This document shows, one piece after another, positions 4,540-30,756 of a stretch of DNA of 64,000 nucleotides (position 1 is its first letter; every line of letters begins with the position of its first letter). The position numbers were made by a program, and so were the translations under genes. The stretch is from Coriobacteriia bacterium (GTDB lineage: Bacteria > Actinomycetota > Coriobacteriia > Anaerosomatales > JBAZZO01), in the NCBI GenBank assembly GCA_041658765.1, contig JBAZZO010000012.1, forward strand, positions 5,387 to 69,386, written 5' to 3'. The notes beneath the pieces are model-generated. The model did no database searches. It saw only the letters and a program-made list of their open reading frames with translations, and was not told the DNA's origin.

Positions 4540-6078
4540 GTGGGTGATCGCGTCCCCGTTCGGCTCGACCCACCGGGCGTGACCGTGTGGGTCTCGCGGG
4601 GTGAGACACTGCTCGAGGCGGCCCATGCGGCGGGCGTGCCTCTGGCGTCCGAGTGCGGTGGCCGCGGGACGTGCGGACGCTGCGCAGTGAGAGTCGTAGG
4701 AGGGCCCCCCGGCGTCGCTGTGCGCGAGGTCCTCCGGGCTTGTCAGACGCATCCGGACGCGCCGATGAGTGTGCGGCCCGTGTCAGCGCTCGGTCCGAAC
4801 GCGGGCGCCGAGGCCGGCTCCGCAGCGCCGCGAGGACCGCTCGTGGCCGCCGTCGACCTTGGGACGACCATCGTCACCGGAGCCGTCGCATCCCCGGTCA
4901 CGGGACGCGAGACCGGACGCGCGTGGCAGACGAATCCGCAACGCGCGAGCGGCGCCGACGTCCTGAGCCGTGCGAGCGCGGCGGCCACCGGCCGGGGCGA
5001 GGACTTGCGGGAGCAGGCCGTTCGCGCGGTCGGCGGCGTCGTGGCCGACGTGCTCGCTCTGGGCGCGCGGGACTTCGGCGACGTATCGCGCTTGGTGGTC
5101 GCCGCGAACCCGATCATGGCGCATCTGTTCGCGGGAGCCGACCCGTCCGGTCTGGGCAGACATCCCGTCGTGCATGCCTGGCAGGGTCCGCTCGCCAGGG
5201 ACGCCGGGGTGTTCGGGCTCTCGGGGTTCGAACCGGACATGCCCGTGGTGGTCCTGCCCGCGCTCGGCGGGCTCGTAGGCGGCGACGCGACGGCGGGGGT
5301 CCTCGCGACCGGACTCGACGGCGAGGGCGTGCGCGTTCTCATCGACCTGGGGACGAACGCCGAGGTGGTCGTCGGGGTGGACGGTCGTCTCACCGCGGCC
5401 TCGGCCGCCGCCGGACCCGCGTTCGAGGGCGGGGGACTCTCGTGTGGCATGCCGGCGATGCCCGGAGCCATCGTGGGAGCGCGCATCGAGAGAGGCGATC
5501 TCGTCATCGATGTCGTGGGCGGGGGAGAGCCCGCGGGTGTCTCCGGAAGCGGCGCCCTGTCGCTGATCCGCGTCCTGCTCGCGACCGGACATCTCGACGG
5601 TAGCGGTCGCCTGTTCCCGGAGGGTCTGCTCGCAGACCGCTTCCGCACGAGCGAGGGCGTCCTGGGGCTGCGACTCGCGGGGGAGCCGGATGGGAGCGAC
5701 GACATCAGGCTCACTCAACTCGACATACGTGAGATCCAGCTCGCGAAGGCCGCCGTGTCGACGGCCCTCACTCGCGCGCTCGACGTCGCAGGCGCCTCGT
5801 GGGACGCGGTGACCTCGGTCTCTGTCGCCGGAGCCTTCGGCTCCGCGCTCGACGGCGAGCTGCTCGAGGCCTTGGGTCTTGTGCCGCGCGGGGTCGCTCA
5901 TCTCACCCGGGTGGTCGGGAACGCCGCACTCCAGGGCGCGATGATCGTCGCGCTCGACCCCGAGGCTGAGCGGCGAGCGGCGGAACTCGCCGCAGGGGCA
6001 TGCGTCCTCGTGCTCGCCGCCGACCCCGCATTCGCCGCCGACTTCCTCGGCAACACCGCGTTCCCGGCGGCGACGTGA
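4540..6078 (+). CDS. 2Fe-2S ferredoxin domain fused to an ASKHA-type ATPase domain (RACo-like / DUF4445 family)
   Basis: The N-terminus carries CGGRGTCGRCAVRV (plant-type 2Fe-2S). This is followed by AVDLGTTIV and LIDLGTNAEVV phosphate-binding motifs of the actin/HSP70 fold. GTG start. Confidence 0.7.
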   Translation: MGDRVPVRLDPPGVTVWVSRGETLLEAAHAAGVPLASECGGRGTCGRCAVRVVGGPPGVAVREVLRACQTHPDAPMSVRPVSALGPNAGAEAGSAAPRGPLVAAVDLGTTIVTGAVASPVTGRETGRAWQTNPQRASGADVLSRASAAATGRGEDLREQAVRAVGGVVADVLALGARDFGDVSRLVVAANPIMAHLFAGADPSGLGRHPVVHAWQGPLARDAGVFGLSGFEPDMPVVVLPALGGLVGGDATAGVLATGLDGEGVRVLIDLGTNAEVVVGVDGRLTAASAAAGPAFEGGGLSCGMPAMPGAIVGARIERGDLVIDVVGGGEPAGVSGSGALSLIRVLLATGHLDGSGRLFPEGLLADRFRTSEGVLGLRLAGEPDGSDDIRLTQLDIREIQLAKAAVSTALTRALDVAGASWDAVTSVSVAGAFGSALDGELLEALGLVPRGVAHLTRVVGNAALQGAMIVALDPEAERRAAELAAGACVLVLAADPAFAADFLGNTAFPAAT

Positions 6079-16199: not shown

Positions 16200-17836
16200 C
16201 ACAACCCGACGGGCTTGGAGAGGACTGTCGCCTGCTTCTTCGTCTTGGGTTCAAACACGTGAACCCCGCACCCGATTCAAGGATCGAAGCTATGTACGAT
16301 GCGCAACGCTTCGAGCGGCTTGGTCGGGTCCTCGACGGGAGCGCCGACGAGCGCTTCCTCCAGCGGACCGCGCTGGCCGTCCTTGTCGCGCGGGGACATG
16401 TCCCACGTCGACGGGGCGATGACCTGGTAGCGGTCTATCTTGCCGCCCTTGACGGTCACCCAGTGTCCGAGAGCGCCGCGAGGCGCCTCCCAGAGGCCTA
16501 CGCCTTCGCCGTCGGTGGCGTCGCTGGTCTCGAAGAACTTCGAGTCCCCGCCCTTGATCGCGGCGACGAGATCGTTGACCCAGCCGAGGGCCTTGTCGGC
16601 GATGTACTTCGCCTCGAGGTTACGGGCCGCGACGCGGCCGAGCAGCGAGAGAAGCACTTCCGGCTTGCCCGCGACGCCGAGCGCCGCGAGTGTGCTGTCG
16701 ACGAGCTCCTTGATCTCGGGAACGCCCGAGACGTATCCGACGAGCATGCGGGAGAGCGGGCCGACCTCCATGGGCTTGCCGTCGTAGCGCGGCGCCTTCA
16801 CCCAGGAGTACTTGTCGTCGACGTTGTAGTCCTTGTACTCCATCTTCGTGACGCCCTTGGCCGGATTCAGATTGCCGGAGTCGGACGTGAACCAGGAGTG
16901 GTCCACGTACTCCATGATCTTCGTCGGATCGGCCTCGAGGACGGATAGCTGACCGCCCATGATGACGCCACGAGGCAGGGCGCGCTTCTTCGGGTCCATC
17001 GACTCGTCGTCGAAGACACCCCACGCGAGGTGGTTCCCGACGCCCTTGCCGTACGTCGCGGCGTCGATGTAGAACGGGGCGATGGCGAGGGTGTCCGGGA
17101 TCATGGTGTTCGTGATCCAGTCGCGGACCTTCGTGAAGCGGAAGAGTATGTCGTCGAGCTTCTCCTCGGTGGGGACCCACACGGTCCCGCCGGGAAGCGA
17201 CGTCATGAAGTGCGGGAACTTGCCGCCCATCACGGCGATGATCGCTGCGGCCTCGGCCTGGATCTCCAGGGCCTCGAGGTAGTGCGCGACGGCGATCAGG
17301 TTGAGTTCGGGCGGAAGCTTCATAGCGGGGTGGCCCCAGTAGCCGTTCGTGAAGATCGACAACTGGCCGCCCTCGACGAACTTCTTGACGCGGGTCTGGA
17401 CTGCGCCGAAGTCGGCGACGCTCGTTCCCGCCTTACTCGCGAGAGCATACGTGTCGGCGATGTCCGCTGAGAGCGCGGAGACCACGTCGACGTAGTCGAG
17501 CGCGGTGAGCGTGTAGAACCACAGCACGTGGCTGTGGAGTGACTCGGCCGCCTCGATGAGGTTGCGGATGATCCGCGCGTTGTTCGGGATCTTGATGTTC
17601 AGCGCGGCCTCCGAGCCCATCGTGGAGGCGTGACCATGTGAGATGGGGCAGACGCCGCAGATGCGCTGCGCGACGTAGAACGCGTCGGCAGGTTCGCGGC
17701 CCTGCAGGACCGTCTCCATGCCACGGTAGAGGCCGCCGGACGCCCAAGCGTCCTTGACCTTCCCGCCCTCGACTTCGATCTCTACGCGGAGATGACCTTC
17801 GATGCGGGTGACTGGATCGATGACTGCACGAGTCAC
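16199..17836 (-). CDS. [NiFeSe] hydrogenase large subunit, selenocysteine encoded by in-frame TGA at 16279..16277 (545 aa including U)
   Basis: N-terminal Ni-ligand motif RICGVCPISHGHAS. The track ORF ends at HSFDP-TGA. Read-through gives DP-U-IGCGVH followed by VFEPKTKKQATVLSKPVGL, ending at TGA 16201..16199. Confidence 0.85.
16247..16266 (-). promoter_or_regulatory. candidate bacterial SECIS hairpin
   Basis: On the minus strand, GGGUUC(A)-CGUGUU-(U)GAACCC begins 11 nt after the UGA. The stem is 6-7 bp and the apical loop contains GU. Confidence 0.6.
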
Positions 17837-18972
17837 TGGTTATCGCCTCCCTTCGCGCTCTTCTTCTGCTTCTCCATGGGAGCACCGTGCCCCATGCGGC
17901 CCGTCGCGACCTGGGCGACGCCGTGGACTACGAGACCCGCGGCGGCGACAGCGCCGAGCGCCGCGCCGATGGTGTCGGGCTTCACGCCGCCGATACCCGG
18001 CAGCGGGATGTCGGCCAGCCGGTTGAGGAACGGAGCGTCCCTGTCGACCCAGTTCAGGTTGCCGCAGCCGATGCATGGGCTGCCGGACTCGACACACCAG
18101 TTGACACGGCGGTTCCAGCGCACGTTCGGGCAGTTCGTCTTCGTCTGGGGGCCCTTGCAGCCGACCTTGTAGAGGCACCACTGCTTGGCTTCCTCGGGCG
18201 TGCCGAACGTCTCGACGAACTCGCCGTTCTCGAAGTGACCGCGACGCGGGCAGTTGTCGTGGATCGTCGACCCGTAGATGAGCGTCGGGCGACCCTCTTC
18301 GTCCAGTTCAGGGAGCTTGCCGATGAGAAGCGCGTCGACGACCATCGCGACGATCCACTCGGGGTTCACGGGACAGGTCGGGAGGTTGATGAGCGGGACT
18401 TCACCGAAGCCGAGCTCCGCCGCGACCTGCTTGACGCCGGTGGCGTTCGCGGGGTTCGGTGCGGCCTTCACCCAGCCGCCGTCGACCGCGCACGAACCGA
18501 CCGCGATGATGGCGTCCGCGTTCGAGCAGACGTCCTTGAGGTGTTCCGTGCCGGTCTTGCCGGCGATGCGAAGGGTGTTGCCGTCGGCGCCCTGCATAAC
18601 GGAGCCCTCGATGATGGCGATGTAGCCGCCCTTGTCGATGGTGTCCTTCTTTGCCTGCTCGGCTTGTTCACCTGCGGCGGCCATGACCGTCTCGAAGTAG
18701 TTGAGTGAGAGAAGGTCCAGCACGATCGAGGCTACGTCGGGATAGTCGACCTGTGCGATCGACTCGGTGCAGCCCGTGCACGAACCTAGGTTGAGCCAGA
18801 TAGCCGGCTTGAGCGCGGCGCCCTTCTCGATCGCCGCGGCGATCTGCGGAGCGGCCATCTCGGACAGCCCGAGCATCGCCGCGAGGGTGCCACAGTACTT
18901 GACGAAGTCACGCCGGGTCACCCCGCGTGCCGCGAGCGCATCGTCGAGGACGCTTCGCGTCTCTTGCGCCAT
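17833..18972 (-). CDS. [NiFe(Se)] hydrogenase small subunit, Tat-exported, with a C-terminal membrane anchor
   Basis: Twin-arginine signal TRRDFVKYCGTLAAMLGL. Fe-S cysteine clusters are present, including NWCVESGSPCIGC. ATG at 18972 lies 8 nt after AAGGAGG. ATGA overlap with the large subunit. Confidence 0.9.
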   Translation of the reverse strand: MAQETRSVLDDALAARGVTRRDFVKYCGTLAAMLGLSEMAAPQIAAAIEKGAALKPAIWLNLGSCTGCTESIAQVDYPDVASIVLDLLSLNYFETVMAAAGEQAEQAKKDTIDKGGYIAIIEGSVMQGADGNTLRIAGKTGTEHLKDVCSNADAIIAVGSCAVDGGWVKAAPNPANATGVKQVAAELGFGEVPLINLPTCPVNPEWIVAMVVDALLIGKLPELDEEGRPTLIYGSTIHDNCPRRGHFENGEFVETFGTPEEAKQWCLYKVGCKGPQTKTNCPNVRWNRRVNWCVESGSPCIGCGNLNWVDRDAPFLNRLADIPLPGIGGVKPDTIGAALGAVAAAGLVVHGVAQVATGRMGHGAPMEKQKKSAKGGDNQ

Positions 18973-19374
18973 ACCATACACCTCCTTGGATGCGTTCCTG
19001 CTGACAGTACGTTCGGGACCGCGACGGCGGTCCGGTTCGGCGGTACCGCTATCGGCATCCTCCTCTCAGGCGGAAAGACCCGGGGATCGTCCTGGACGGG
19101 ATCTCAGGCCGCGCGCCACCCGGGAGGGTCGCGCCGGCCGATGCCGGAAGGTGGACGCGGGCAGAGGCGCCCGAGGGGGAAGCCCAGGTGGGTCGGGAGC
19201 AGGAGCGGGAGTCTCGACTTGGACGCGCCGGAAAGGCAGTCGACGTGGCGGTGAGCCCCGACTCCGGGCGAACGCACGTGAGTGCGTGACTGTCCATAGC
19301 CCCCTCAGACCACACAGCTTTCACCGGACAGCAGGCAGCCAGCTGCGACGGCAGGCCGGCACCCACCGACAACT

Positions 19375-21220: not shown

Positions 21221-22563
21221 GCCCGTTCGAGCAAGGCGACCGTCTCGACGTGATACGTCTGCGGGAAGAGGTCGACCGGAACGGCAGACGCCAGCCGGTA
21301 GCCCGACTCCGCGAGCCGCGCGACATCGCGTGCTAGCGTGGTCGGGTCGCACGAGACGTAGACGATCCGCCCCGGCCGTGCCGCGACGAGCGCGCGCAGC
21401 GCGTCCGGGCGCATGCCCGCGCGAGGCGGGTCGACGACCGCGGCGTCGAAGACACCCAGTTCGGACAGGGCGCGGGCGGCGTCGCCCGGAGCGACCTGGG
21501 CCTTCAGGTCGTTCTCTTGCAGGTTGCGCCGCAGGTCGCGCACCGCGCTGCCGCCTGACTCCACGGCCACGACGGAGCCCGCCGCGGCCGCCAGCGGGAG
21601 AGTGAACGTCCCGACTCCCGCGTAGAGGTCGAGGACCCGGTCCGAGCCGTCCGCAGCGAGGCGCTCGAGCACGATCGCGACGAGCCGCTCGGCGGCCATC
21701 GTGTTGACCTGGAAGAACGAAGGCGCGGAGACGAGGTACGGACGCCCGGCGAGCCTCTCGCGCCATGCCCCGGGTCCGGCGAGGACCTCCACTCGCGAGA
21801 CCGCGCGAGCGGACGTCGGGCCCTTCGTCAGGACGTGCGTGACGGTCGTCGCTCCGACCGCGGTGGCGATGGTGCCCGCCGCGGCGTGTCTGGGGAAGGG
21901 CCCCGGCGGGCCCCAGAGGTCGACGGCGACGTCGGGGGAGTGACGCGCGACGCGCAGGGAGACCCTCTCGATGCCGAGGCCGTGACGGCCCGCGAGGTAC
22001 CTGAGCGCACCGCGCAGCGCACGCGGGGCGCCCTCCCGGTTCTTCGGAAGCAGGAGGCATGCGTCGACGGGGACGAACCCGTCGCCCTGGCGAGGAGCGA
22101 ACCCCAGGGAGAGGCGGCCGTCCTCGGCGGCGCCGACGGTGAGTTCGACGCGGTTCCGGTAGCCGAGGGCGGGTCCGGCGTCGACGACGTCCTCCACGAC
22201 CTCGCCCGTGACATGCCCGATCCGGGTGAGCGCCTCGGCGACGGCTCTCGTCTTCGCCGCGAGTTGCACGGCTGCTGAGACGTGCTGCCACTGACAGCCG
22301 CCGCACGTCCCGAAGTACGGGCAAGGTGGGACGACCCGCTCGGGCGAGGCCTGCACGATCTCGAGGACTTCTCCGATCACGTACCGGCCTCGGTCGGAGA
22401 CGACCTTGGCCGTGACCACATCTCCGGGGCAAGCCCCGCTGAGGAAGACCGCACGACCATCGGCGGCGTGGGCGACCGCGTCACCGCCGTACGCGAGGCT
22501 CTCGACGGTAAGACGCATCGGATCGTCCATCGGGTCCTTCCGGTTGCCGACCGTGCCGGTCAC
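21217..22563 (-). CDS. 23S rRNA (uracil-5-)-methyltransferase, RumA/RlmD family
   Basis: TRAM domain, 4Fe-4S cysteines (CPYFGTCGGCQWQH), SAM-binding motif VLDLYAGVGTF, and catalytic VSCDP. An alternative start is M16 at 22518. Confidence 0.85.
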   Translation of the reverse strand: MTGTVGNRKDPMDDPMRLTVESLAYGGDAVAHAADGRAVFLSGACPGDVVTAKVVSDRGRYVIGEVLEIVQASPERVVPPCPYFGTCGGCQWQHVSAAVQLAAKTRAVAEALTRIGHVTGEVVEDVVDAGPALGYRNRVELTVGAAEDGRLSLGFAPRQGDGFVPVDACLLLPKNREGAPRALRGALRYLAGRHGLGIERVSLRVARHSPDVAVDLWGPPGPFPRHAAAGTIATAVGATTVTHVLTKGPTSARAVSRVEVLAGPGAWRERLAGRPYLVSAPSFFQVNTMAAERLVAIVLERLAADGSDRVLDLYAGVGTFTLPLAAAAGSVVAVESGGSAVRDLRRNLQENDLKAQVAPGDAARALSELGVFDAAVVDPPRAGMRPDALRALVAARPGRIVYVSCDPTTLARDVARLAESGYRLASAVPVDLFPQTYHVETVALLERA

Positions 22564-22639
22564 GGTCCATCATACGGTATCGGGCGCGCCGCGCCCCGTG
22601 CGGGGGCCGCAGGCCCCGAACGAGGAGGTTGGGCGTCCC

Positions 22640-24214
22640 GTGGGGGAGAGCAGGATACTGATCGTCCACGACGACATGGGCCTCGTCGAGACTCTGAAGA
22701 ACGCGATCGAGCAGGCCTTGCCGGGTTCGGAGGTCGCGTCCGCGATCTCCGCTCCACGCGCTCTCGGTCTGTGCATGAGCACCCCTCCGGACCTCGTGAT
22801 AGTCGATGGGGACCTGACGGGGATGGACGGATACACGTTCACGAAGCAACTCCTGGAGGAAGAGGGCTGCTCCGGCGTCAAGGTCATCATCCTGGCCGAG
22901 AGCCCCACCGAGGCCTCGGCGCTCAAGGCGCGGCAGTCTGGAGCCGCGGCGCATCTCTCGCAGGCGGCGGACACGACGACGGTCGTCGAGAAGGTCGCGT
23001 CGCTCCTCTCGGTCGCCGCGGAGACCCCGCAAGCGCCCGTCGAGACTCCGCTTCCCGAGCCCGTCGGCGGCTACGGCGTGGCAGGGCCGCCCAGCGGAGT
23101 GCCGGTCGGGGCGGTCCAGGTGGGCAGCGCCGTGCCCGGAGGCGACGCCCCGGTCGTCGACGACCTCCTCCGCGAGATGGTCGACCGCGGCGGCTCGGAC
23201 CTGCACATCGCGGTCGGTAGCGCTCCGGGCTTCCGCATCCGCGGCGAGCTCATACCGGTCGACGGGGCGAAGACGCTCACGCCGCGCGACACGCAGGACA
23301 TGATCCTCAACCTGCTCTCCGAGGAGCAGCGACGTCGCTTCGAGACGGAGCTCGAGCTCGATTTCGCCTACAGCATCCCCGGACTCTCGCGATTCCGCGC
23401 CAACGTCTACCAGCAGAGGGACACCATGGCGGCCGTCTTCCGCGTGGTCCCCATCGCCGTCCCGACGCTCGAGGAGCTGGGGCTGCCGAAGGTCTGCAAG
23501 TTCCTCGCGGACAGGCCGCGAGGCCTGGTCCTCGTGACCGGTCCGACGGGCGCCGGCAAGTCGACGACGCTGGCGGCGATGATCGACCACATCAACGCGA
23601 CGCGTCCGCTGCACATCGTCACCCTCGAGGACCCGATCGAGTTCATGCACAAGAACCAGAAGGCGTACGTCTCGCAACGCGAGATCGGCGAGGACACGCA
23701 TTCGTTCGCGGGCGCGCTCAGGCGGGTGCTGCGACAGGACCCCGACGTCATCCTCGTCGGAGAGATGCGCGACCTCGAGACGATCTCCGCGGCCATCACG
23801 GCGGCGGAGACGGGCCACCTCGTGCTGGCGACCCTGCACACGACCGGCGGTCCCGCGACCGTCGACCGCATCATCGACGTCTTCCCTCCACACCAGCAGA
23901 TGCAGGTGCGCATGCAGCTCGCCGGCACCTTGGAGGGCGTCCTGTCGCAGGTGCTGTTGCGCAGCACGGACGGTCGCTCCCGCGTTCTGGCGATGGAGAT
24001 CATGCTCGGCGTGCCGGCGATCAGCAACCTCATCCGCGAGGGGAAGACGCACCAGATGCCGACGATCATCCAGGGCGGCGCCGCGCTGGGCATGCAGACG
24101 CTCGACCAGCACCTGAAGACCCTGCTGCAGGCGGGCAAAGTCACGTACGAGGAGGCCATAAGCAAGGCTCAGAACCCGCGGGAACTCGCGGCCATGGTCG
24201 GCCGGAAGATATAG
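22640..24214 (+). CDS. pilT: receiver-domain-fused type IV pilus retraction ATPase (REC-PilT)
   Basis: GTG at 22640 after GAGGAGG. N-terminal CheY-like fold (ILIVHDD, DLVIVDGDLTGMDG), then a Pro-rich linker, then a PilT core (GPTGAGKST, DVILVGEMRD, TGHLVLATLHT). Confidence 0.85.
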   Translation: MGESRILIVHDDMGLVETLKNAIEQALPGSEVASAISAPRALGLCMSTPPDLVIVDGDLTGMDGYTFTKQLLEEEGCSGVKVIILAESPTEASALKARQSGAAAHLSQAADTTTVVEKVASLLSVAAETPQAPVETPLPEPVGGYGVAGPPSGVPVGAVQVGSAVPGGDAPVVDDLLREMVDRGGSDLHIAVGSAPGFRIRGELIPVDGAKTLTPRDTQDMILNLLSEEQRRRFETELELDFAYSIPGLSRFRANVYQQRDTMAAVFRVVPIAVPTLEELGLPKVCKFLADRPRGLVLVTGPTGAGKSTTLAAMIDHINATRPLHIVTLEDPIEFMHKNQKAYVSQREIGEDTHSFAGALRRVLRQDPDVILVGEMRDLETISAAITAAETGHLVLATLHTTGGPATVDRIIDVFPPHQQMQVRMQLAGTLEGVLSQVLLRSTDGRSRVLAMEIMLGVPAISNLIREGKTHQMPTIIQGGAALGMQTLDQHLKTLLQAGKVTYEEAISKAQNPRELAAMVGRKI

Positions 24215-24228
24215 GGTACATAGCCGGC

Positions 24229-24651
24229 GTGGACACCGTCATCGTCAGATGGAACGGCGGAAGGCGCTTCGTCGGCTGGGACGAGGCCGGCCACGGCGTC
24301 GTCATGGACTCGCCGAAGGAATACCACGGCGACGGTTCGGGCGCGCGTCCCCTCGAACTCGCCCTCTACGCCCTCGGCGGATGCACGGGCATCGACGTCA
24401 TCTCGATCCTGGCCAAGCAGCGCCAGGACGTGCGCGACTTCGAGGTGCGTGTCACCGCCGGCCAGCGCGAGGAGCAGCCGCGCATCTATACCGAGGTAGC
24501 GGTCGAGTACGTCGTGACGGGACACGACGTCAATCCCGCGTTCCTCGAGCGCGCGGTCGCGCTCTCCGAGGAGAAGTACTGCTCGGTTCGGGGGATGTTC
24601 GGACCGCAGGTCCGGATCACGTCCTCCTGGCGCGTCGTCGAAGCCGAGTAG
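24229..24651 (+). CDS. OsmC family peroxiredoxin-like protein
   Basis: 140 aa with two conserved Cys residues (LGGCTGID and EKYCSVRG). Confidence 0.8.
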   Translation: MDTVIVRWNGGRRFVGWDEAGHGVVMDSPKEYHGDGSGARPLELALYALGGCTGIDVISILAKQRQDVRDFEVRVTAGQREEQPRIYTEVAVEYVVTGHDVNPAFLERAVALSEEKYCSVRGMFGPQVRITSSWRVVEAE

Positions 24652-24671: not shown

Positions 24672-25373
24672 GTGTCCGATGCCGTCATCATGCCCGTCCA
24701 TGACGAGGCGCCCACGGTGTGCGAGGTCCTCGATGCCGTGCGGGAGGAGTTCGCGGGGCTGGTCATCGTCGTCGACGACGGCTCCACAGATGGTAGCGCG
24801 GAGATCCTTGCGCACCGCCATGACATCGTCCTCGTGACGCACCCGGGCAACCTCGGCTACGGGCGCTCGCTCATCGACGGGTTCGCGCTCGCGCGCTCGG
24901 CGGGGGCCCGCCGCGTGCTGACGATGGACTGCGACGGACAGCACGAGCCCGCCCACATCGCGGCGTTCCTCGCGGCGATCGATTCGGGTGCGGACATCGT
25001 GTCGGGCAGCCGCTACCTGCCCGAGAGCGTCGCGATCGGGGAGACCCCCGGCCAGCGCCGCGAGGTCAACGAGCGGGTCGCGACCGAGGTGAACGCCGTC
25101 ACGGGCTGGGGCATCACCGACGCGTTCTGCGGCTTCAAGGCGTACCGCGCCGGGATGCTGGACTGTCTCGACCTGTCCGAGCCAGGGTATGCCATGCCCA
25201 TGGAGCTGTGGGCGAAGGCGTGGAGGTGCTCCGCTAGAGTGCGGGAACTGCCGGTGGAGCGGATCTACTCCGATGCGGACCGCTCGTTCGGTGAGGACCT
25301 GGACGATCCGGAGAGGCGATTCGCCTACTACTTGCGCGTTTGGCGCGATGCCCTTGGGAAGGACGAAGGATGA
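24672..25373 (+). CDS. family 2 glycosyltransferase (DPM1-like)
   Basis: GTG start. AVIMPVHDEAPTV, VVDDGSTDGS and DCDGQHEP motifs of GT-A fold GT2 enzymes. Confidence 0.8.
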   Translation: MSDAVIMPVHDEAPTVCEVLDAVREEFAGLVIVVDDGSTDGSAEILAHRHDIVLVTHPGNLGYGRSLIDGFALARSAGARRVLTMDCDGQHEPAHIAAFLAAIDSGADIVSGSRYLPESVAIGETPGQRREVNERVATEVNAVTGWGITDAFCGFKAYRAGMLDCLDLSEPGYAMPMELWAKAWRCSARVRELPVERIYSDADRSFGEDLDDPERRFAYYLRVWRDALGKDEG

Positions 25374-26050
25374 TCGACGCGCTGTGCGTCGGGGCTCACC
25401 CCGACGACGTCGAGATAGGGATGGGCGGCACGGTAGCGGGCATGGTACGCCGCGGACTGGAGGTCGCGATCGTCGACCTCACGGACGGCGAGCCCACACC
25501 CGCGGGCTCTTCCGAGACGCGCGCGAAGGAGTCCGCCGCGGCGGCGGCCGTCCTCGGCGCACGCCGCCGCACCCTCGACCTCCCGAACCGCTCGCTCTTC
25601 GACGGAGTGGCGGAGCGCACGGCGCTGGCCGAGGTCATACGCGAGTTGAAGCCCCGGCTGCTCTTCCTGCCGTATCCCGAAGACGCGCATCCCGACCATG
25701 TCGCCGCCGCGGCGATAGGGGAGGCTGCCCGCTTCTGGGCGAAGTTCGTGAAGACGGAGATGTCCGGGGAGCCTCACTATCCGGAGAAGGTCTACCACTA
25801 CTACGCCGTCCACCTGCGGCTGCTCAAGAAGCCGGCGTTCGTCGTGGATATCTCGCCCGACCTCGCGGCGAAGATGGATGCCCTGCGATGCTACGCGTCG
25901 CAGTTCTCCGCCAATCCCCGCAACGCCGAGGTGCTGCCGACGATGGAGATGATGGCCCGCTCGTGGGGCGCTCTCATCGGCACAGCCGCCGGTGAGCCGT
26001 TCTTCTGTCGCGAAGAGATCGGCGTAGCCCGCGTCGAGGACCTGGTCTAG
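25370..26050 (+). CDS. PIG-L/LmbE family N-acetylglucosaminyl deacetylase (BshB/MshB-like)
   Basis: ATG at 25370 overlaps the GT2 stop (ATGA). Contains VGAHPDDVEIGMGGT, VDLTDGE and HPDH motifs. Confidence 0.8.
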   Translation: MIDALCVGAHPDDVEIGMGGTVAGMVRRGLEVAIVDLTDGEPTPAGSSETRAKESAAAAAVLGARRRTLDLPNRSLFDGVAERTALAEVIRELKPRLLFLPYPEDAHPDHVAAAAIGEAARFWAKFVKTEMSGEPHYPEKVYHYYAVHLRLLKKPAFVVDISPDLAAKMDALRCYASQFSANPRNAEVLPTMEMMARSWGALIGTAAGEPFFCREEIGVARVEDLV

Positions 26051-26059
26051 GCACGCGCG

Positions 26060-27631
26060 ATGGTCCACGCCAAGGGCACCACCCCGCAAGGTCACGGCGA
26101 GCTGCTCACCGTGCCGCCGTACGTCGAGTGGGCCGCGCTCGCCCGTGCGAACGCGCGTGTCGCGGCAGCGCTCGACGTGCGGATCGCGGGCGTTCCGGCG
26201 CGCGAGCTGCGCGCGGAAGCTCGCGAGACCGCGCTCGCGGCGGCCGCTGAGTTCTCGCGGTACCTAGGCGTCGAGGTGACGAGCGGCGCGGGGGCCGGCG
26301 CGCCGCTCGTGATGACCGGCCACCAGCCGCAGCTCTACCACCCCGGTGTCTGGGCGAAGGTCTTCCTGTTGCAGCGTCTCGCACAAGAGATCGGGGGCAC
26401 GGGCATCGACCTTGTCGTCGACTCGGACGGTTTCGACGCGGTCGAGCTGACCGCTCCGTGTCTTCGCCCGGAGATCGAGCGATGCCGCCAGTACCTCGCG
26501 ATCGGCGGCACGGATGCCTGCTACGCATGCTCTCCGGTGCCCTCGCTGGCGGACATCGAGACCTTCCGCGTGGCTGGGGAGCAGATGCTCTCGACCCTGC
26601 CCGCCCCGGCCCTGCCGAGGCATTTCGGCGCTTTCTGCGACGCGCTGGCATCGGCGAACACAGATGCGCGCAATCTCGCGGAACTCGTCACCTTCGCGCG
26701 CAGACGTTACGAAGCGAGCGCCGGGACGACGTACCTGGAGCTTCCCGTGACCGAGGAGGCCGTCACGGCACCGTTCCGGCGCTTCGCCGTGTCGCTGCTC
26801 GGGGAGGCCGAGCGGTTCGCACTGGCGTACAACGAAGCGCTCGCGGCGTACCGCGCGGCGAATCGCGTGCGCTCGGTCGTGCAGCCGTTCCCGGACCTGA
26901 CGTTCGACGGCGATCTCGTGGAGACGCCTTTCTGGCTGGTGGGTGAGCGTGGGCGCACGGCCGTGTGGGCGCGTCAGGGCGACGTGACGGAACTGCTCGC
27001 CGGCGGCGAGGTCGTTTGCCGGCTGCCCGCCGACCCCGATGCGGCCGTCACCGCTCTCGAGGAGTCGGGTGTCCTGCTCGCGCCGAAGGCCGTCGTACTC
27101 ACCGCATATCAGCGACTGCTCGTCGCGGATCTGTTCATCCACGGTGTAGGCGGAGGGCGCTACGACCGCGTGACCGACGACGTGGTCCGCCGCTTCTTCG
27201 GTGTGGACCTTCCGCCCTTCGTGGTGGCGTCGCTGACCGTCCAGCTCCCGCTGGGTGCGAGCGTGGTCGGCGACCGCGAGGTGGAGGAGGCCGAGAGGCG
27301 CGTGCAGACGGCGGAGCACAACCCCGACCGTCTGCTCGACGAGGTGGAGTTCGACGACGAGGCCGAGCGTGAGCGGGCCGAAGCGCTCGCTGAGGAGAAG
27401 GCGCGGCTCGTCGCCGCGATCGAACAGCCGGGAGCGGACCGCAAGGCGCTGGGCGCGGCGATCCGAGACGCGAACGCCGGGCTCGCGGACGTGCTCGCGC
27501 CGCTGGTGGCGGAGGCGCGCTCGCGCGCCGAGGACCTGCGCGCGCGCCGCGACGCGGCGGACATCCTCACCGACCGCACCTACCCGTTCTGCCTCTGGAG
27601 CCCACAGGAGATCCAGGACAAGGTGGGGTAA
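26060..27631 (+). CDS. BshC-like protein (putative cysteine-adding enzyme family), divergent
   Basis: The by-eye layout matches B. subtilis BshC: VMTGHQPQLYHPGVWAK vs VVGGQQAGLLTGPLYTIHK, IHGVGGGRYD vs IAGPGEINYW, and LPPFVVASLTV vs MPPVMPRLNIT. There is also a C-terminal coiled-coil-like segment. Confidence 0.5.
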   Translation: MVHAKGTTPQGHGELLTVPPYVEWAALARANARVAAALDVRIAGVPARELRAEARETALAAAAEFSRYLGVEVTSGAGAGAPLVMTGHQPQLYHPGVWAKVFLLQRLAQEIGGTGIDLVVDSDGFDAVELTAPCLRPEIERCRQYLAIGGTDACYACSPVPSLADIETFRVAGEQMLSTLPAPALPRHFGAFCDALASANTDARNLAELVTFARRRYEASAGTTYLELPVTEEAVTAPFRRFAVSLLGEAERFALAYNEALAAYRAANRVRSVVQPFPDLTFDGDLVETPFWLVGERGRTAVWARQGDVTELLAGGEVVCRLPADPDAAVTALEESGVLLAPKAVVLTAYQRLLVADLFIHGVGGGRYDRVTDDVVRRFFGVDLPPFVVASLTVQLPLGASVVGDREVEEAERRVQTAEHNPDRLLDEVEFDDEAERERAEALAEEKARLVAAIEQPGADRKALGAAIRDANAGLADVLAPLVAEARSRAEDLRARRDAADILTDRTYPFCLWSPQEIQDKVG

Positions 27632-27639
27632 CGCCGAGT

Positions 27640-30600
27640 CTAGCGTCTCACTCCAATCGCATCCAACTCCAACCTAGGCCTGCGCGCCGTCGCAAGATTC
27701 TCTATCGTCACCGTGTGGACCTCATTCGCGTTTCCCGCGATGCGCGGCCACGCCCACGCAGCCTGGCGGAATCTCGTGGACGGAGCATACGTGTCGAAGG
27801 TCGACCAAGCACCTCCGTCGACCCTGACCCGTGCCTTCCCTCGATCAGGCCCTTCCGTGACGAACAAGATCACCTGCCTGCCGTTGAATCGATAGACCGC
27901 CCTGGCTCCTGGTCTGGTCGTGGATCTCGCGGTGCCAAGGTAGAGCTGGGAAGACGTCGCGCTGGTCGACGCCCACATCCGAGCCGAGTAGGTCGCCACA
28001 TCCTGGTCGAAAGGAACCACCGTCGCGACAGGCGGAGACCACGTACTCTGGTTGTCCGTCCAGTCCGTGGCTCTGACCCGGAAGTGGTACGTGTGGCCGA
28101 CGGTGCCGGAGAAGATGCCGGACGTCTGAGTCGTGTCGTTCTTCCAGTCCGTCCACGCGCCCAGTGAGCCGTCCTTTCGCTGGACTTCGTAGGAGGCGAT
28201 GCCCATCGTCGGCGTCGCGTCGCTTGCCGTCCAGCCGACCCTGAAGGTCCTGGTCTTGGACTGATCGGTCGAATATCGCGGCGCGGAAGCTCGAGCGAAC
28301 GGTTTCGTCCGGTCCGGCCAGTATGGATTGAAGCTGCGTGCGGCCATGATGAACCAGGATGTGGCACCGACGTGCAGACGGTTGAGGTACACCAAGTCGA
28401 ATCCCGTGGTCACTCCGTCGTGGCAAGCGGCCACGATGCCCCTGCCGTCCGAGTTCTCGGCCGAGACCTGTGCCCGGCGCAGCTCTCGCAGGTACGTGCC
28501 GGCCGCCTCGGTCTCACATGCCGCCCGATACGCCGTCACCATCTGCGCGGTCCCTTCGAACCAGATGCCGTCCAGGTCATCGTTGAAGTCGAAGCCGCTG
28601 AACCCAGGGCGAGCGTCGCTGTGATTCGGACAATCATGCACCGCGCAATCCGTTCGCGCATTCGCCTCGGCCCACGCAAGACCTTGTCGGTATTCCAGCT
28701 TCTCAGGGAAGGCAAGCACCGCCCACGCCTGGATGTCCACTGGGATGTTGGCGGTGTTCGTGGTCGTTCCGTCACCTAATGTGCCGGTCCAGAAGCGTCC
28801 CGAGTCAGAGTCCCACATCGCCTCGACCAGCCGCTTGGCATGGTTCGCCCGTTCGACCCAGGCGGTGTTTCCTGTTGCGGTGTGTAGCCGCCTGAAGGCC
28901 ACGTAGAGATCGATGTTGTGCTCTGTGGACTTCCAGGTCTGTTTCTGGGGAGGATCGCTTGGCCAACCCCTGTAGCCCCCCATGTATCCGCCGATCGCAA
29001 CCGAGTCGTCTCTCGTCTCGGTCTCGACCCACTCCCCCATCCTTCTTGCGGCTTCGAGATAGGCTGGGTCCCCTTTGTTCTCGTAGTAGTCGAGGAGCGC
29101 GATCATCGCCCAAGCGATGTTGCCCGTCGTGGAGCTCACCGCTTCCGGATCCTCGAGCCATCTCTTCCGAGTGTCGTCCCACCAACCAGGCAGTAGGGCA
29201 TCGCCGTTCGACGTATCAGTGATGTCGCCGGAGCGATACGCGTTCCGCAACCTCCCATCGTCATAGTCTGGATCGTGATCCTGCGCGTAGATCAACGTAT
29301 CGCCGATGATCTTGGCTCTGCGCCAATCGTCCGCGGTTCCGCGAGCCATGTATGACAGCATGGCCAGGGCGTTGTCATAGGTGAAAGCCACGTTGCCGAG
29401 TGGTTTGTCGGCGTCGGGATCGCGCAACTCGAAGCTCGTGAGCAGCCGGAGAGCGTTCGGTCTGGCTTTGTCGAACTGGATGTCGTCGAGATAGAAAGTG
29501 ACGCCGTCGGGATTGCTGGCCTTGTCCGTCGCCCACGCGAACCCGCCGATCGTCGAGTTGAGATCCGAGGGCGAGAGTGACCGCTCGTATCGAATGTCGT
29601 CAAGGTAGAAGGTGGCTCCATTTGCGTTGCGCGATCTGTTCGTGGCCCAGCCGAAGCCGCCGATGACCCGAGACAAGTCCTTTCCGGTCAGGTCTATCGA
29701 GTACGTCGTCCAAGTGCTATCCAGCGAGACATAGCCCAGACTGGTCTTTGGACTCGAGTCGTAGTACGGCTTCGTCGGCGTGCCGGTCAACGGGTCTCGG
29801 CCGATGCCGAACGCGAAGAACTCCACCTGCTCTCCGCCGACCCGGCCGTGTGCCTTGAAGGTCAAGCGGGTGAAGCCTGCGAGGTCGAGACCTGCGGGGG
29901 AATCGCCCCATGCGTTGGCGGGACACTGCCAGTAGATGCCAGACCATCCTTGTGGGCCCGCCGCCGAGTAGTCGATCCGGATCGCCGTTCTCCCGGCGTA
30001 CGGGTTGACGGTGTAGGTGTCGGTGAAAGTGATGTCGCCCAAGTCACCCATCGAGCCGCTCGGAGCGAAGCCGTTGGCCACGTGTTGATCGCGGTAGACA
30101 TCGAAGTAGTCCTTGTCCAGCGGGATGGTGAACCGCTGCCACTCGTCGCTCAACCTCACGTAGCCGGTGCCGATGGGACCGAATGCATCCCGATCGGGCT
30201 TGGCGGGATCGTCGTTCGGGATCCTGTTGATCCCGCCGACCTTGAAGTCGACCCAACCGTCACCCGGATCTTCCTTCTTGCCCCAGAAGGTAAGCTGACT
30301 GGCTCCGCGAAGGTCCAATCCCCCAGTGAGATCGCCCCAGTTGTTCTCCGGATGTTGCCAGTAGATGCCGGCCCACCTGTTTCCCTGGGTCGCCTCGGCG
30401 GAATAGCGAATCCTGACCGAGGTGAGGCCGGAGTGAGGAACGGTTGCGGTGCTGTCGCTGGCGAACGTGACGTCAGCCCAGTCTCCCATCCACCCGGAGG
30501 GGATGTAGTGGTTGCCGCCGGAGTCCGCGTCCGTGTACACGTCGACGGTATGGTTGAACTTGTCCATCACGCTGTTGAGATACTCGTATCCGAGCGCGGT

Positions 30601-30756
30601 CGAAACCGTCGTTGATGTGTCGAGCGCCACAGCCGGTCTCGTCTCCGGTGGTCTCGAGATGGTTTGAGACGCAGCGCCCACCCCGACGGCGAATCCGACC
30701 ATCGTCGTCGCCATAGAGAGGATTACCAGCGGATACCCGATCCTCTTGGCTGACAT
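27640..30756 (-). CDS. secreted multidomain protein: signal/TM anchor, two CBM-like beta-sandwich modules, (alpha/alpha)6-barrel glycoside-hydrolase-like domain, FN3 domain, C-terminal beta-sandwich
   Basis: 1038-aa ORF with an N-terminal hydrophobic segment. Internal duplicated modules are present. The TGNIAWAMIALLDYY and DIQAWAVLAF patterns resemble barrel helices. An FN3-like segment reads HTYHFRVRATDWTDNQS. The CDS itself is solid; the product call is tentative. Confidence 0.6.
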   Translation of the reverse strand: MSAKRIGYPLVILSMATTMVGFAVGVGAASQTISRPPETRPAVALDTSTTVSTALGYEYLNSVMDKFNHTVDVYTDADSGGNHYIPSGWMGDWADVTFASDSTATVPHSGLTSVRIRYSAEATQGNRWAGIYWQHPENNWGDLTGGLDLRGASQLTFWGKKEDPGDGWVDFKVGGINRIPNDDPAKPDRDAFGPIGTGYVRLSDEWQRFTIPLDKDYFDVYRDQHVANGFAPSGSMGDLGDITFTDTYTVNPYAGRTAIRIDYSAAGPQGWSGIYWQCPANAWGDSPAGLDLAGFTRLTFKAHGRVGGEQVEFFAFGIGRDPLTGTPTKPYYDSSPKTSLGYVSLDSTWTTYSIDLTGKDLSRVIGGFGWATNRSRNANGATFYLDDIRYERSLSPSDLNSTIGGFAWATDKASNPDGVTFYLDDIQFDKARPNALRLLTSFELRDPDADKPLGNVAFTYDNALAMLSYMARGTADDWRRAKIIGDTLIYAQDHDPDYDDGRLRNAYRSGDITDTSNGDALLPGWWDDTRKRWLEDPEAVSSTTGNIAWAMIALLDYYENKGDPAYLEAARRMGEWVETETRDDSVAIGGYMGGYRGWPSDPPQKQTWKSTEHNIDLYVAFRRLHTATGNTAWVERANHAKRLVEAMWDSDSGRFWTGTLGDGTTTNTANIPVDIQAWAVLAFPEKLEYRQGLAWAEANARTDCAVHDCPNHSDARPGFSGFDFNDDLDGIWFEGTAQMVTAYRAACETEAAGTYLRELRRAQVSAENSDGRGIVAACHDGVTTGFDLVYLNRLHVGATSWFIMAARSFNPYWPDRTKPFARASAPRYSTDQSKTRTFRVGWTASDATPTMGIASYEVQRKDGSLGAWTDWKNDTTQTSGIFSGTVGHTYHFRVRATDWTDNQSTWSPPVATVVPFDQDVATYSARMWASTSATSSQLYLGTARSTTRPGARAVYRFNGRQVILFVTEGPDRGKARVRVDGGAWSTFDTYAPSTRFRQAAWAWPRIAGNANEVHTVTIENLATARRPRLELDAIGVRR
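29473..29664 (-). repeat. two copies of a 26-aa motif IGGF(G/A)WATxxxxNxxGxTFYLDDI
   Basis: The copies are at aa 365-390 and aa 403-428 of the secreted protein. Confidence 0.7.
29800..30498 (-). repeat. tandem duplication of a ~90-aa CBM-like module inside the secreted protein
   Basis: aa 87-176 and aa 233-319 share SGxMGDxxDxTF...RIxYSA...W(A/S)GIYWQxPxNxWGD...GLDLxGxxxLTF. Confidence 0.7.

Follow-up and report, generated by a model that had tools for sequence, protein, structure and literature searches.

Three adjacent genes in a 64,000-nucleotide stretch of a Coriobacteriia bacterium genome (GenBank assembly GCA_041658765.1, contig JBAZZO010000012.1, forward-strand positions 5,387–69,386; hereafter the window, in whose own numbering coordinates are given) constitute a real, conserved and unannotated variant of a bacillithiol/mycothiol-type pathway. 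They encode a family 2 glycosyltransferase (GT2), a PIG-L/LmbE zinc deacetylase and a 523-aa BshC-like protein, and the single most likely reading of this module, to which we assign a probability of about 0.5, is that it makes a distinct cysteinyl-aminosugar thiol. Few low-molecular-weight thiols are known (glutathione, mycothiol, bacillithiol, ergothioneine and some others), and past discoveries of such compounds each opened fields of redox biology, detoxification and antibiotic resistance. The module provides a concrete three-gene thiol candidate for the Planctomycetes, with more than 3,300 sequence clusters, a clean either/or relationship to the bacillithiol genes and carriers in culture (Bythopirellula goksoeyrii, B. 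polymerisocia and Adhaeretor mobilis). No description of it was found in the literature on bacillithiol and Coriobacteriia, on BshC and Planctomycetes, or on BshC with a novel glycosyltransferase.

The genes form a single compact operon on the + strand. It is headed by an OsmC/Ohr-family peroxidase-like gene (24229–24651; 140 aa; PF02566, E 2.5e-16, at 60.3 bits against a gathering score of 27.5, with 124 bits on NCBIfam PRK10738, under the cut-off of 138), the stop of which lies 20 nt before the GTG start of the GT2 gene (24672–25373; 233 aa; TGA stop; PF00535, E 2.7e-23). The GT2 stop and the ATG start of the BshB1-type deacetylase gene (25370–26050; 226 aa; PF02585, E 8.1e-25) share a 4-nt ATGA overlap, and 9 nt separate the deacetylase stop from the ATG start of the open reading frame (ORF) for the BshC-like protein (26060–27631; 523 aa; no Pfam assignment, with a BshC fold in the predicted model). 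A first-pass annotation of this DNA had described the trio as translationally coupled or closely spaced, with an OsmC thiol peroxidase-like gene immediately upstream, and both descriptions hold. Third-position G+C was 0.86–0.89 in the OsmC, deacetylase and 523-aa ORFs (the three frames listed), values typical of the real genes of the window. No promoter-like sites were found in the operon region, and the single terminator-like match fell within the deacetylase gene and was no better than chance in shuffled sequences.

The distribution of the module relative to the canonical bacillithiol genes was assessed by searching six families in one fixed set of 121 Planctomycetota genomes. The BshC-like gene was present in 20 genomes and canonical BshC (E <= 1e-10) in 63, and the two were never found together (0/121; Fisher p 5e-8; this and the other Fisher tests on the profile, reaching p 8e-25, are overstated in that related genomes are not independent). 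BshA scored over its cut-off in 57 of the 121, and none of the 20 carriers had a BshA match at E <= 1e-55. The GT2 ortholog (253–356 bits) occurred in all 20 BshC-like genomes and in one other, G180; scores were bimodal (orthologs at 253 bits or more, generic paralogs at 156 or less), and in several of the 20 the GT2 ortholog and the BshC-like gene were on separate contigs or hundreds of kb apart. The BshB1-type deacetylase (E <= 1e-30), by comparison, was common to both gene sets; it was found in every one of the 20 module genomes, in 60 of the 63 with canonical BshC and, weakly, in 2 others (82 in total). Five more carriers, from four phyla, had a BshB1-type gene over the cut-off, and BshC and BshA were not found in them. 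Within the window's own order, all 42 sampled genomes (9 families, 30 genera) carried the BshC-like gene, as did none of the 58 sampled from other orders of its class. Because co-occurrence, mutual exclusion, order-wide carriage and the grouping of the deacetylases (described below) coincide, we conclude that the GT2, the deacetylase and the BshC-like gene are a co-inherited three-gene unit that takes the place of BshA–BshB–BshC. Canonical bsh genes occur in roughly half of the sampled Planctomycetota genomes, and the variant in another sixth of them, contrary to a 2018 listing of Planctomycetes among the major lineages without a documented or predicted thiol (Hiras et al. 2018, PMC6282198).

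Genome G180, the only exception to the either/or pattern, has a module-type GT2 ortholog (253.8 bits), a BshB1-like gene and a canonical BshC (PF10079 and PF24850), without BshA, and may have a true hybrid pathway or be a binning artefact. Its BshC contig has 44% G+C, against 49–50% for its other two contigs, and given this deviation we did not rely on G180 as a hybrid proving that the GT2 feeds BshC; a 518-aa gene beside its deacetylase was found to be pyruvate kinase. Adjacent canonical bshA-bshB1-bshC genes are common in Planctomycetota (for example, G079:C98:23706-28039, locus L121).

The BshC-like family itself is large, with 3323 clusters at 50% identity matching at E <= 1e-3 and 1314 at E <= 1e-30, and its named members are all labelled 'hypothetical protein'. 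We confirmed 552 relatives in species-representative genomes and searched the best 80 loci with the window's proteins; these came from Actinomycetota, Planctomycetota, Nitrospinota, Nitrospirota, Armatimonadota, metagenome-assembled genomes labelled Bacillota, Ca. Sysuimicrobiota and unnamed phyla. A GT2 ortholog lay directly upstream of the BshC-like gene in 61 of the 80, across at least 7 phyla (phmmer E 1e-45 to 1e-101), and a deacetylase gene stood between the two in 35 loci, all non-Planctomycetota. An OsmC gene preceded the GT2 in about 14 loci, all of them actinobacterial, such that its link to the module is confined to Coriobacteriia relatives; the full order OsmC–GT2–PIG-L–BshC-like was kept in two closer relatives. 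All-against-all clustering of neighbours was noisy owing to antisense ORFs in high-GC DNA. Two other sets of neighbours were judged to reflect lineage synteny and not membership of the module: the cytochrome c maturation genes CcmF and CcmB, found downstream in a handful of related loci, and NIF3, found upstream in 8 loci from planctomycetes. One 7.8-kb ENA metagenome contig encodes an 802-aa protein (P0370) in which a GT2 (residues ~15–245) is fused to a BshC-like region (~265–802); the fusion, if real, would link the two enzymes, and it could also come from a sequencing frameshift, or from read-through or a lost stop. Longer GT2–BshC-like fusions, of at least 924 aa, were not found.

Searches of the 523-aa protein against Pfam and NCBIfam gave no match even at E 10, PDB sequences (phmmer and two profiles) returned nothing save coiled-coil noise to designed helical proteins, and 42 diverse family members scanned singly against Pfam were likewise without a match. 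The protein falls outside the PF10079, PF24850 and TIGR03998 cut-offs that delimit BshC, and TIGR03998, which detects the Bacillus subtilis, Thermus and Deinococcus controls, found nothing in the host genome. The AlphaFold (AF2) model (pLDDT 89.1, pTM 0.81), however, combines a core resembling the Rossmann domain of class I aminoacyl-tRNA synthetases with a C-terminal helical coiled coil (long helices at residues 405–504), and thus has the full-length BshC fold. Its top Foldseek match was B. subtilis BshC (4WBD; E 1.6e-12, TM 0.55/0.53, 531 columns, 11% identity), on which VIA-align superposed 450 of the 523 residues (Z 26.4, root-mean-square deviation 5.5); the runners-up were class I LysRS (Z 19.3), MshC (10.7) and other class I synthetases (~10). 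Profile–profile alignment of the family with 12 true BshC sequences, taken from Bacillota genomes, gave 482 collinear columns (hhalign E 1.2e-4, probability 55%) and paired TGHQPxLYHPGVW with TGQQxGLxTGPLY, VDSD with EDHD, and IHGvGGakYD with vaGPGEixY, with most residues differing. As the first-pass annotation had pointed out, GHQPQLYHPGVW (residues 87–98) replaces the usual GQQxGLxxGPLY. The same annotation's description of the protein as a divergent BshC homolog is upheld by the fold and by the profile–profile alignment, and finds no match in the BshC family hidden Markov models (HMMs). A lack of significant similarity to the BshC family, which that annotation had named as refuting its idea, is thus a borderline case, the resemblance being seen in fold and profile–profile comparisons and in no HMM search. 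On this combination of model and sequence evidence, we regard the family as a genuine, very remote sister family of BshC, outside BshC as currently defined, and its member in the window as a putative ATP-dependent amino-acid ligase of the pathway, by analogy with its structural counterpart. Defining this unnamed family may be of wider use, in that having two families to compare could aid in working out how BshC acts. In the ESM Atlas, the nearest clusters were unannotated Planctomycetota, followed by archaeal (Nitrososphaerota) clusters, the nearest annotated neighbours, in which 15–49% of members carry PF10079 (TM 0.70–0.75) and which may be intermediates between BshC and the 523-aa family.

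The deacetylase, by contrast with the other two enzymes, belongs to a named family at equivalog level. The PIG-L/LmbE assignment made at first pass from AHPDDVEIGMGG and DLTDGE is borne out by PF02585, and both strings are in the translation, along with the zinc/catalytic motifs AHPDD and HPDH. The protein scored 196.1 bits on NCBIfam TIGR04001 (BshB1; curated cut-off 182.5), and 195.5 when the whole genome was searched, with 45 bits on the MshB model and 38 on that of BshB2, and its gene is the sole BshB1-type gene of the host genome. In a quick maximum-likelihood tree (a quick search only, midpoint-rooted), 10 canonical planctomycete BshB1 sequences formed one clade, and all 26 module-linked deacetylases, planctomycete ones included, lay across a split with SH-aLRT 98. 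The module deacetylases are thus separate in this quick tree from those of canonical bshA-bshB1-bshC operons.

The glycosyltransferase differs in kind from its bacillithiol counterpart. BshA and MshA are GT4 enzymes of the GT-B fold, BshA acting with retention; the cluster's enzyme has neither that fold nor matches at the level of those family models, and the observation at first pass that a GT-A fold GT2 occupies their slot is confirmed by PF00535, by the GT-A model and by neighbours from the DPMS clade. Its top NCBIfam matches were PpgS (102.8 bits against a cut-off of 370), a dolichyl-phosphate hexose transferase, AglJ and ArnC (36 bits against 529), all far under their cut-offs, and the nearest solved structure to a profile of 24 GT2 orthologs was Pyrococcus furiosus DPMS (5MLZ, E 9.5e-23), then ArnC and GtrB. 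The GT2 model (pLDDT 94.6) superposes on DPMS with Z 24.6 over 221 aligned residues and on ArnC with Z 22.5; soluble enzymes with small acceptors followed at Z 21.6 (GpgS), 20.3 (MpgS) and 18.6 (mannosylglycerate synthase, MGS). In the pairwise alignment, D86-C-D88-G-Q90-H91 pairs with D89-A-D91-L-Q93-H94 of DPMS (DxDxQH), and R114, R129 and N133, invariant in the 24 orthologs, pair with R117, R131 and S135 (N133 thereby replacing the serine), which in P. furiosus DPMS bind the acceptor phosphate (PMC5526996). The DPMS lysine that contacts the phosphoester, K178, is an alanine in the GT2, the helix that corresponds to interface helix 1, which binds lipid in DPMS, is polar (QRREVNERVATEVN), and no membrane segment was found in the 233 residues. 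The enzyme therefore has the DxDxQH signature and the acceptor-phosphate arginines of polyprenyl-phosphate glycosyltransferases, and lacks their membrane anchoring and an equivalog-level score. From its sequence, we place the GT2 in the clade of these enzymes (DPMS, ArnC, GtrB and PpgS). Since the acceptor-phosphate residues are kept, K178 is lost and the interface helix is polar, its acceptor is probably anionic, a phosphate or an acid, and both a lipid and a small molecule fit.

The host appears to have no other route to a known thiol of the bacillithiol, mycothiol or glutathione type. Its genome (2.06 Mb in 24 contigs) is 100% complete by marker genes, and BshA, BshC, MshA, MshC, GshA and GshB were not found in it; the canonical bshA, bshC, mshA and mshC genes whose presence elsewhere the first-pass annotation had named as decisive against its idea are thus among those not found. 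The best host GT4 scored 94 bits against the BshA cut-off of 273.7 (TIGR03999) and 132 bits against the MshA cut-off of 462.5 (TIGR03449). The sole match to the MshC model was at CysRS level (288.6 bits against a cut-off of 485); this CysRS-like match (G000:C3:81753-82910, L017) has one in-frame TGA inside a 502-aa open frame, which could be a frameshift, a sequencing error, a boundary between two genes or a recoded codon.

Taking these data together, our preferred reading, at a probability of about 0.5, is a cytoplasmic pathway to a cysteinyl-aminosugar glycoside that would follow bacillithiol/mycothiol logic with two of the three enzymes replaced. By analogy with those pathways, we infer the donor sugar, the acceptor, the added amino acid and the function as a thiol. 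Specifically, the GT2 would move an N-acetylhexosamine (HexNAc), most likely N-acetylglucosamine (GlcNAc) from UDP-GlcNAc, onto the anionic acceptor, in a linkage expected to be beta from an inverting GT-A enzyme; the BshB1-type LmbE deacetylase would strip the N-acetyl group, freeing the sugar amine; and the BshC-like, aminoacyl-tRNA-synthetase-like enzyme would join an amino acid to that amine with ATP, the amino acid being most likely cysteine, as with BshC and MshC. Such a cysteinyl-aminosugar glycoside would be chemically unlike bacillithiol and would serve as a low-molecular-weight thiol where BshA and BshC are lacking. Small acceptors have a precedent in GpgS, MpgS and MGS, GT-A enzymes that use hydroxy-acid acceptors and are structurally close to the GT2 (Z 18–21.6). 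The carriage of the gene by 42 of 42 genomes of the order and the lack of detected bacillithiol, mycothiol or glutathione synthesis genes in the host suggest a housekeeping role. We hold with a little less confidence to a fuller version, in which the module leads to an undescribed beta-linked cysteinyl-aminosugar thiol on a new aglycone, N-acetylated in some Planctomycetota, that acts as the main redox buffer of lineages without a known thiol; those lineages would be the window's Coriobacteriia order, about one-sixth of the sampled Planctomycetota, Nitrospinota, Armatimonadota and others.

Both established pathways lend this reading their outline. Bacillithiol synthesis (BshA of GT4, BshB1/BshB2 of LmbE type, and BshC) likewise runs from a glycosyltransferase through an N-deacetylase to a BshC-fold enzyme; it shares with the module a deacetylase at BshB1 level and a third enzyme built like BshC throughout, C-terminal helical region included, and in Planctomycetota the two gene sets interchange. 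The module differs in its inverting GT-A/GT2 enzyme of the DPMS clade, as against a retaining GT-B/GT4 BshA, in a third enzyme that is invisible to PF10079 and TIGR03998 and 11% identical to 4WBD, and in motifs (GHQPxLYHPGVW and HGxGGxxYD in the module; GQQxGLxxGPLY and GPGExxY in BshC), its deacetylases form a separate group, and the module is not accompanied by YtxJ, YpdA or bacilliredoxin. Mycothiol synthesis (MshA of GT4, MshB of LmbE type, the CysRS-like MshC and the GNAT enzyme MshD) also passes from LmbE deacetylation to acylation by an enzyme of class I aminoacyl-tRNA synthetase fold, and the module's host in the window is an actinobacterium. The module's ligase, though, is far closer to BshC than to MshC, its deacetylase reaches 45 bits on MshB, and neither MshA nor the GNAT family described next was found in the host genome.

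MshD completes the mycothiol pathway, and in at least 12 loci of planctomycetes, from Pirellulales, Planctomycetaceae and Isosphaeraceae (for example, L067:7604-9082), the gene immediately after that for the BshC-like ligase encodes an Eis-like GNAT protein (~480 aa, with GNAT and SCP2 domains); all 11 of the aligned proteins match PF13527 (best E 4.7e-25). As a general analogue of MshD it was set aside, being a clade-limited hint. One genome, G158, encodes a full-length YpdA-like flavoprotein of the bacillithiol-disulfide-reductase family (306.8 bits against a cut-off of 339.9) 1.9 kb from a module-type deacetylase; the flavoprotein and deacetylase genes (L153, 4847-5872 and 7735-8436, respectively) are convergent, with a C92 amidase-like gene between them. 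The adjacent OsmC gene, the Eis-like GNAT and this YpdA-like flavoprotein are hints of thiol or amine chemistry.

Several results weigh against a cysteinyl-aminosugar thiol. The BshC family HMMs are without any match to the 523-aa protein, and the hhalign probability is only 55%. To our knowledge, the evidence that BshC itself ligates cysteine is genetic, with no in vitro reconstitution, which makes the analogy indirect. YtxJ, bacilliredoxin and YpdA over cut-off were not found in the host genome, and across the Planctomycetota set YtxJ occurred in 28 of the 63 canonical-BshC genomes and in none of the 20 module genomes (p 8e-5). The Eis-like GNAT was not found in the host, nor in the 121 Planctomycetota genomes save for one partial match. 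Finally, the nearest sequence relatives of the GT2 (DPMS, ArnC, GtrB and PpgS) all glycosylate polyprenyl phosphates and both DPMS acceptor-phosphate arginines are retained, which makes a lipid-phosphate acceptor a live possibility. The variant-pathway idea of the first-pass annotation is strengthened by the either/or distribution against BshA and BshC. Its suggestion of a thiol product is less secure, given a GT2 of lipid-phosphate type and bacillithiol accessory genes that do not accompany the module, and the annotation's own alternative, another glycoconjugate pathway, is therefore still plausible.

The foremost alternative, which we consider unlikely yet the most serious, is that the module builds a lipid-linked aminosugar. 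The GT2 would make a polyprenyl-phosphate-HexNAc at the inner membrane face, the LmbE enzyme would deacetylate it and the BshC-like enzyme would N-aminoacylate it, with the modified sugar then flipped and added to a cell-envelope polymer (compare PpgS and the galactosamine on arabinogalactan, ArnC–ArnD and 4-amino-4-deoxyarabinose (Ara4N), or PIG-A/PIG-L and glycosylphosphatidylinositol). In sequence and structure the GT2 is indeed closest to DPMS, ArnC, GtrB and PpgS (Rv3631, which makes polyprenyl-phosphate-N-acetylgalactosamine), with DxDxQH and equivalents of DPMS R117 and R131 (the invariant R114 and R129) conserved, and PpgS is also a short GT2 without membrane segments. Glycosyltransferase–deacetylase pairs that work on lipid carriers are well known (ArnC/ArnD, PIG-A/PIG-L), a deacylase acting next in both the PpgS and ArnC routes, and the module travels without bacillithiol-dependent accessory genes. 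Set against this are the polar equivalent of interface helix 1, the alanine at K178, the missing membrane segment and the scores far under the PpgS and ArnC cut-offs. The deacetylase is of LmbE/BshB1 type and not of ArnD type, no flippase, GT-C transferase or small membrane partner recurred beside the module in the 80 loci, and we know of no lipid-linked route with a BshC-fold ligase. BshA and BshC are replaced one for one with the BshB1-type enzyme kept, as an exchange inside a soluble thiol pathway predicts and an envelope pathway does not, and the envelopes of the carriers (Gram-positive Coriobacteriia, Planctomycetota and Nitrospinota) are very different. If true, this alternative would yield a new kind of aminoacylated lipid-sugar donor, likewise new.

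It is less probable again that the product is a soluble glycoside without a thiol. The third enzyme would then attach some other amino acid, or a different carboxylate, in place of cysteine, and the product would act as a compatible solute, as a signalling metabolite or as the precursor of a cofactor. Cysteine is not dictated by any sequence feature, the Coriobacteriia OsmC gene is the one known thiol-dependent accessory linked to the module, and GpgS, MpgS and MGS, which resemble the GT2 in structure, produce glycosides that are compatible solutes. Conversely, the fact that the module and the bacillithiol genes exclude each other points to physiological equivalence, every sampled genome of the window's order, which consists of anaerobes with small genomes, carries the gene, and no other thiol pathway was found in the host genome. 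Authentic bacillithiol (Cys-GlcN-malate), made by non-orthologous, isofunctional replacements of BshA and BshC, would explain the strict either/or pattern, the BshB1-type deacetylase common to both gene sets and over the equivalog cut-off, and the pairing of a GT2 ortholog with canonical BshC in G180 without BshA, and we rate it very improbable because GT2 enzymes invert anomeric configuration and would yield a beta-glycoside from UDP-alpha-GlcNAc, whereas bacillithiol is alpha-linked; furthermore, none of the 20 module genomes has YtxJ, a gene whose distribution follows that of canonical BshC, the module deacetylases branch separately from canonical planctomycete BshB1 even where they share its phylum, suggesting another substrate, and G180 may be a binning artefact.

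Just upstream of the operon in the window lie the large- and small-subunit genes of a NiFe hydrogenase (16277–18981, − strand) and, next to the OsmC gene, an unusual fusion of a response-regulator receiver to a T2SSE/PilB-type ATPase (22406–24214, + strand), the position of the ATPase gene being kept in relatives; a tRNA methyltransferase gene and a Crp regulator gene are also upstream. Downstream are a convergent 1038-aa ORF and a lipid kinase gene. The 1038-aa ORF (27640–30756, − strand) has no Pfam match, stops 8 nt from the stop of the BshC-like gene and has a G+C of ~0.62, against 0.68–0.70 in the flanks. It looks like an insertion, because in two relatives (maybe not the closest) a small 4Fe-4S ferredoxin gene and plsY hold its position.

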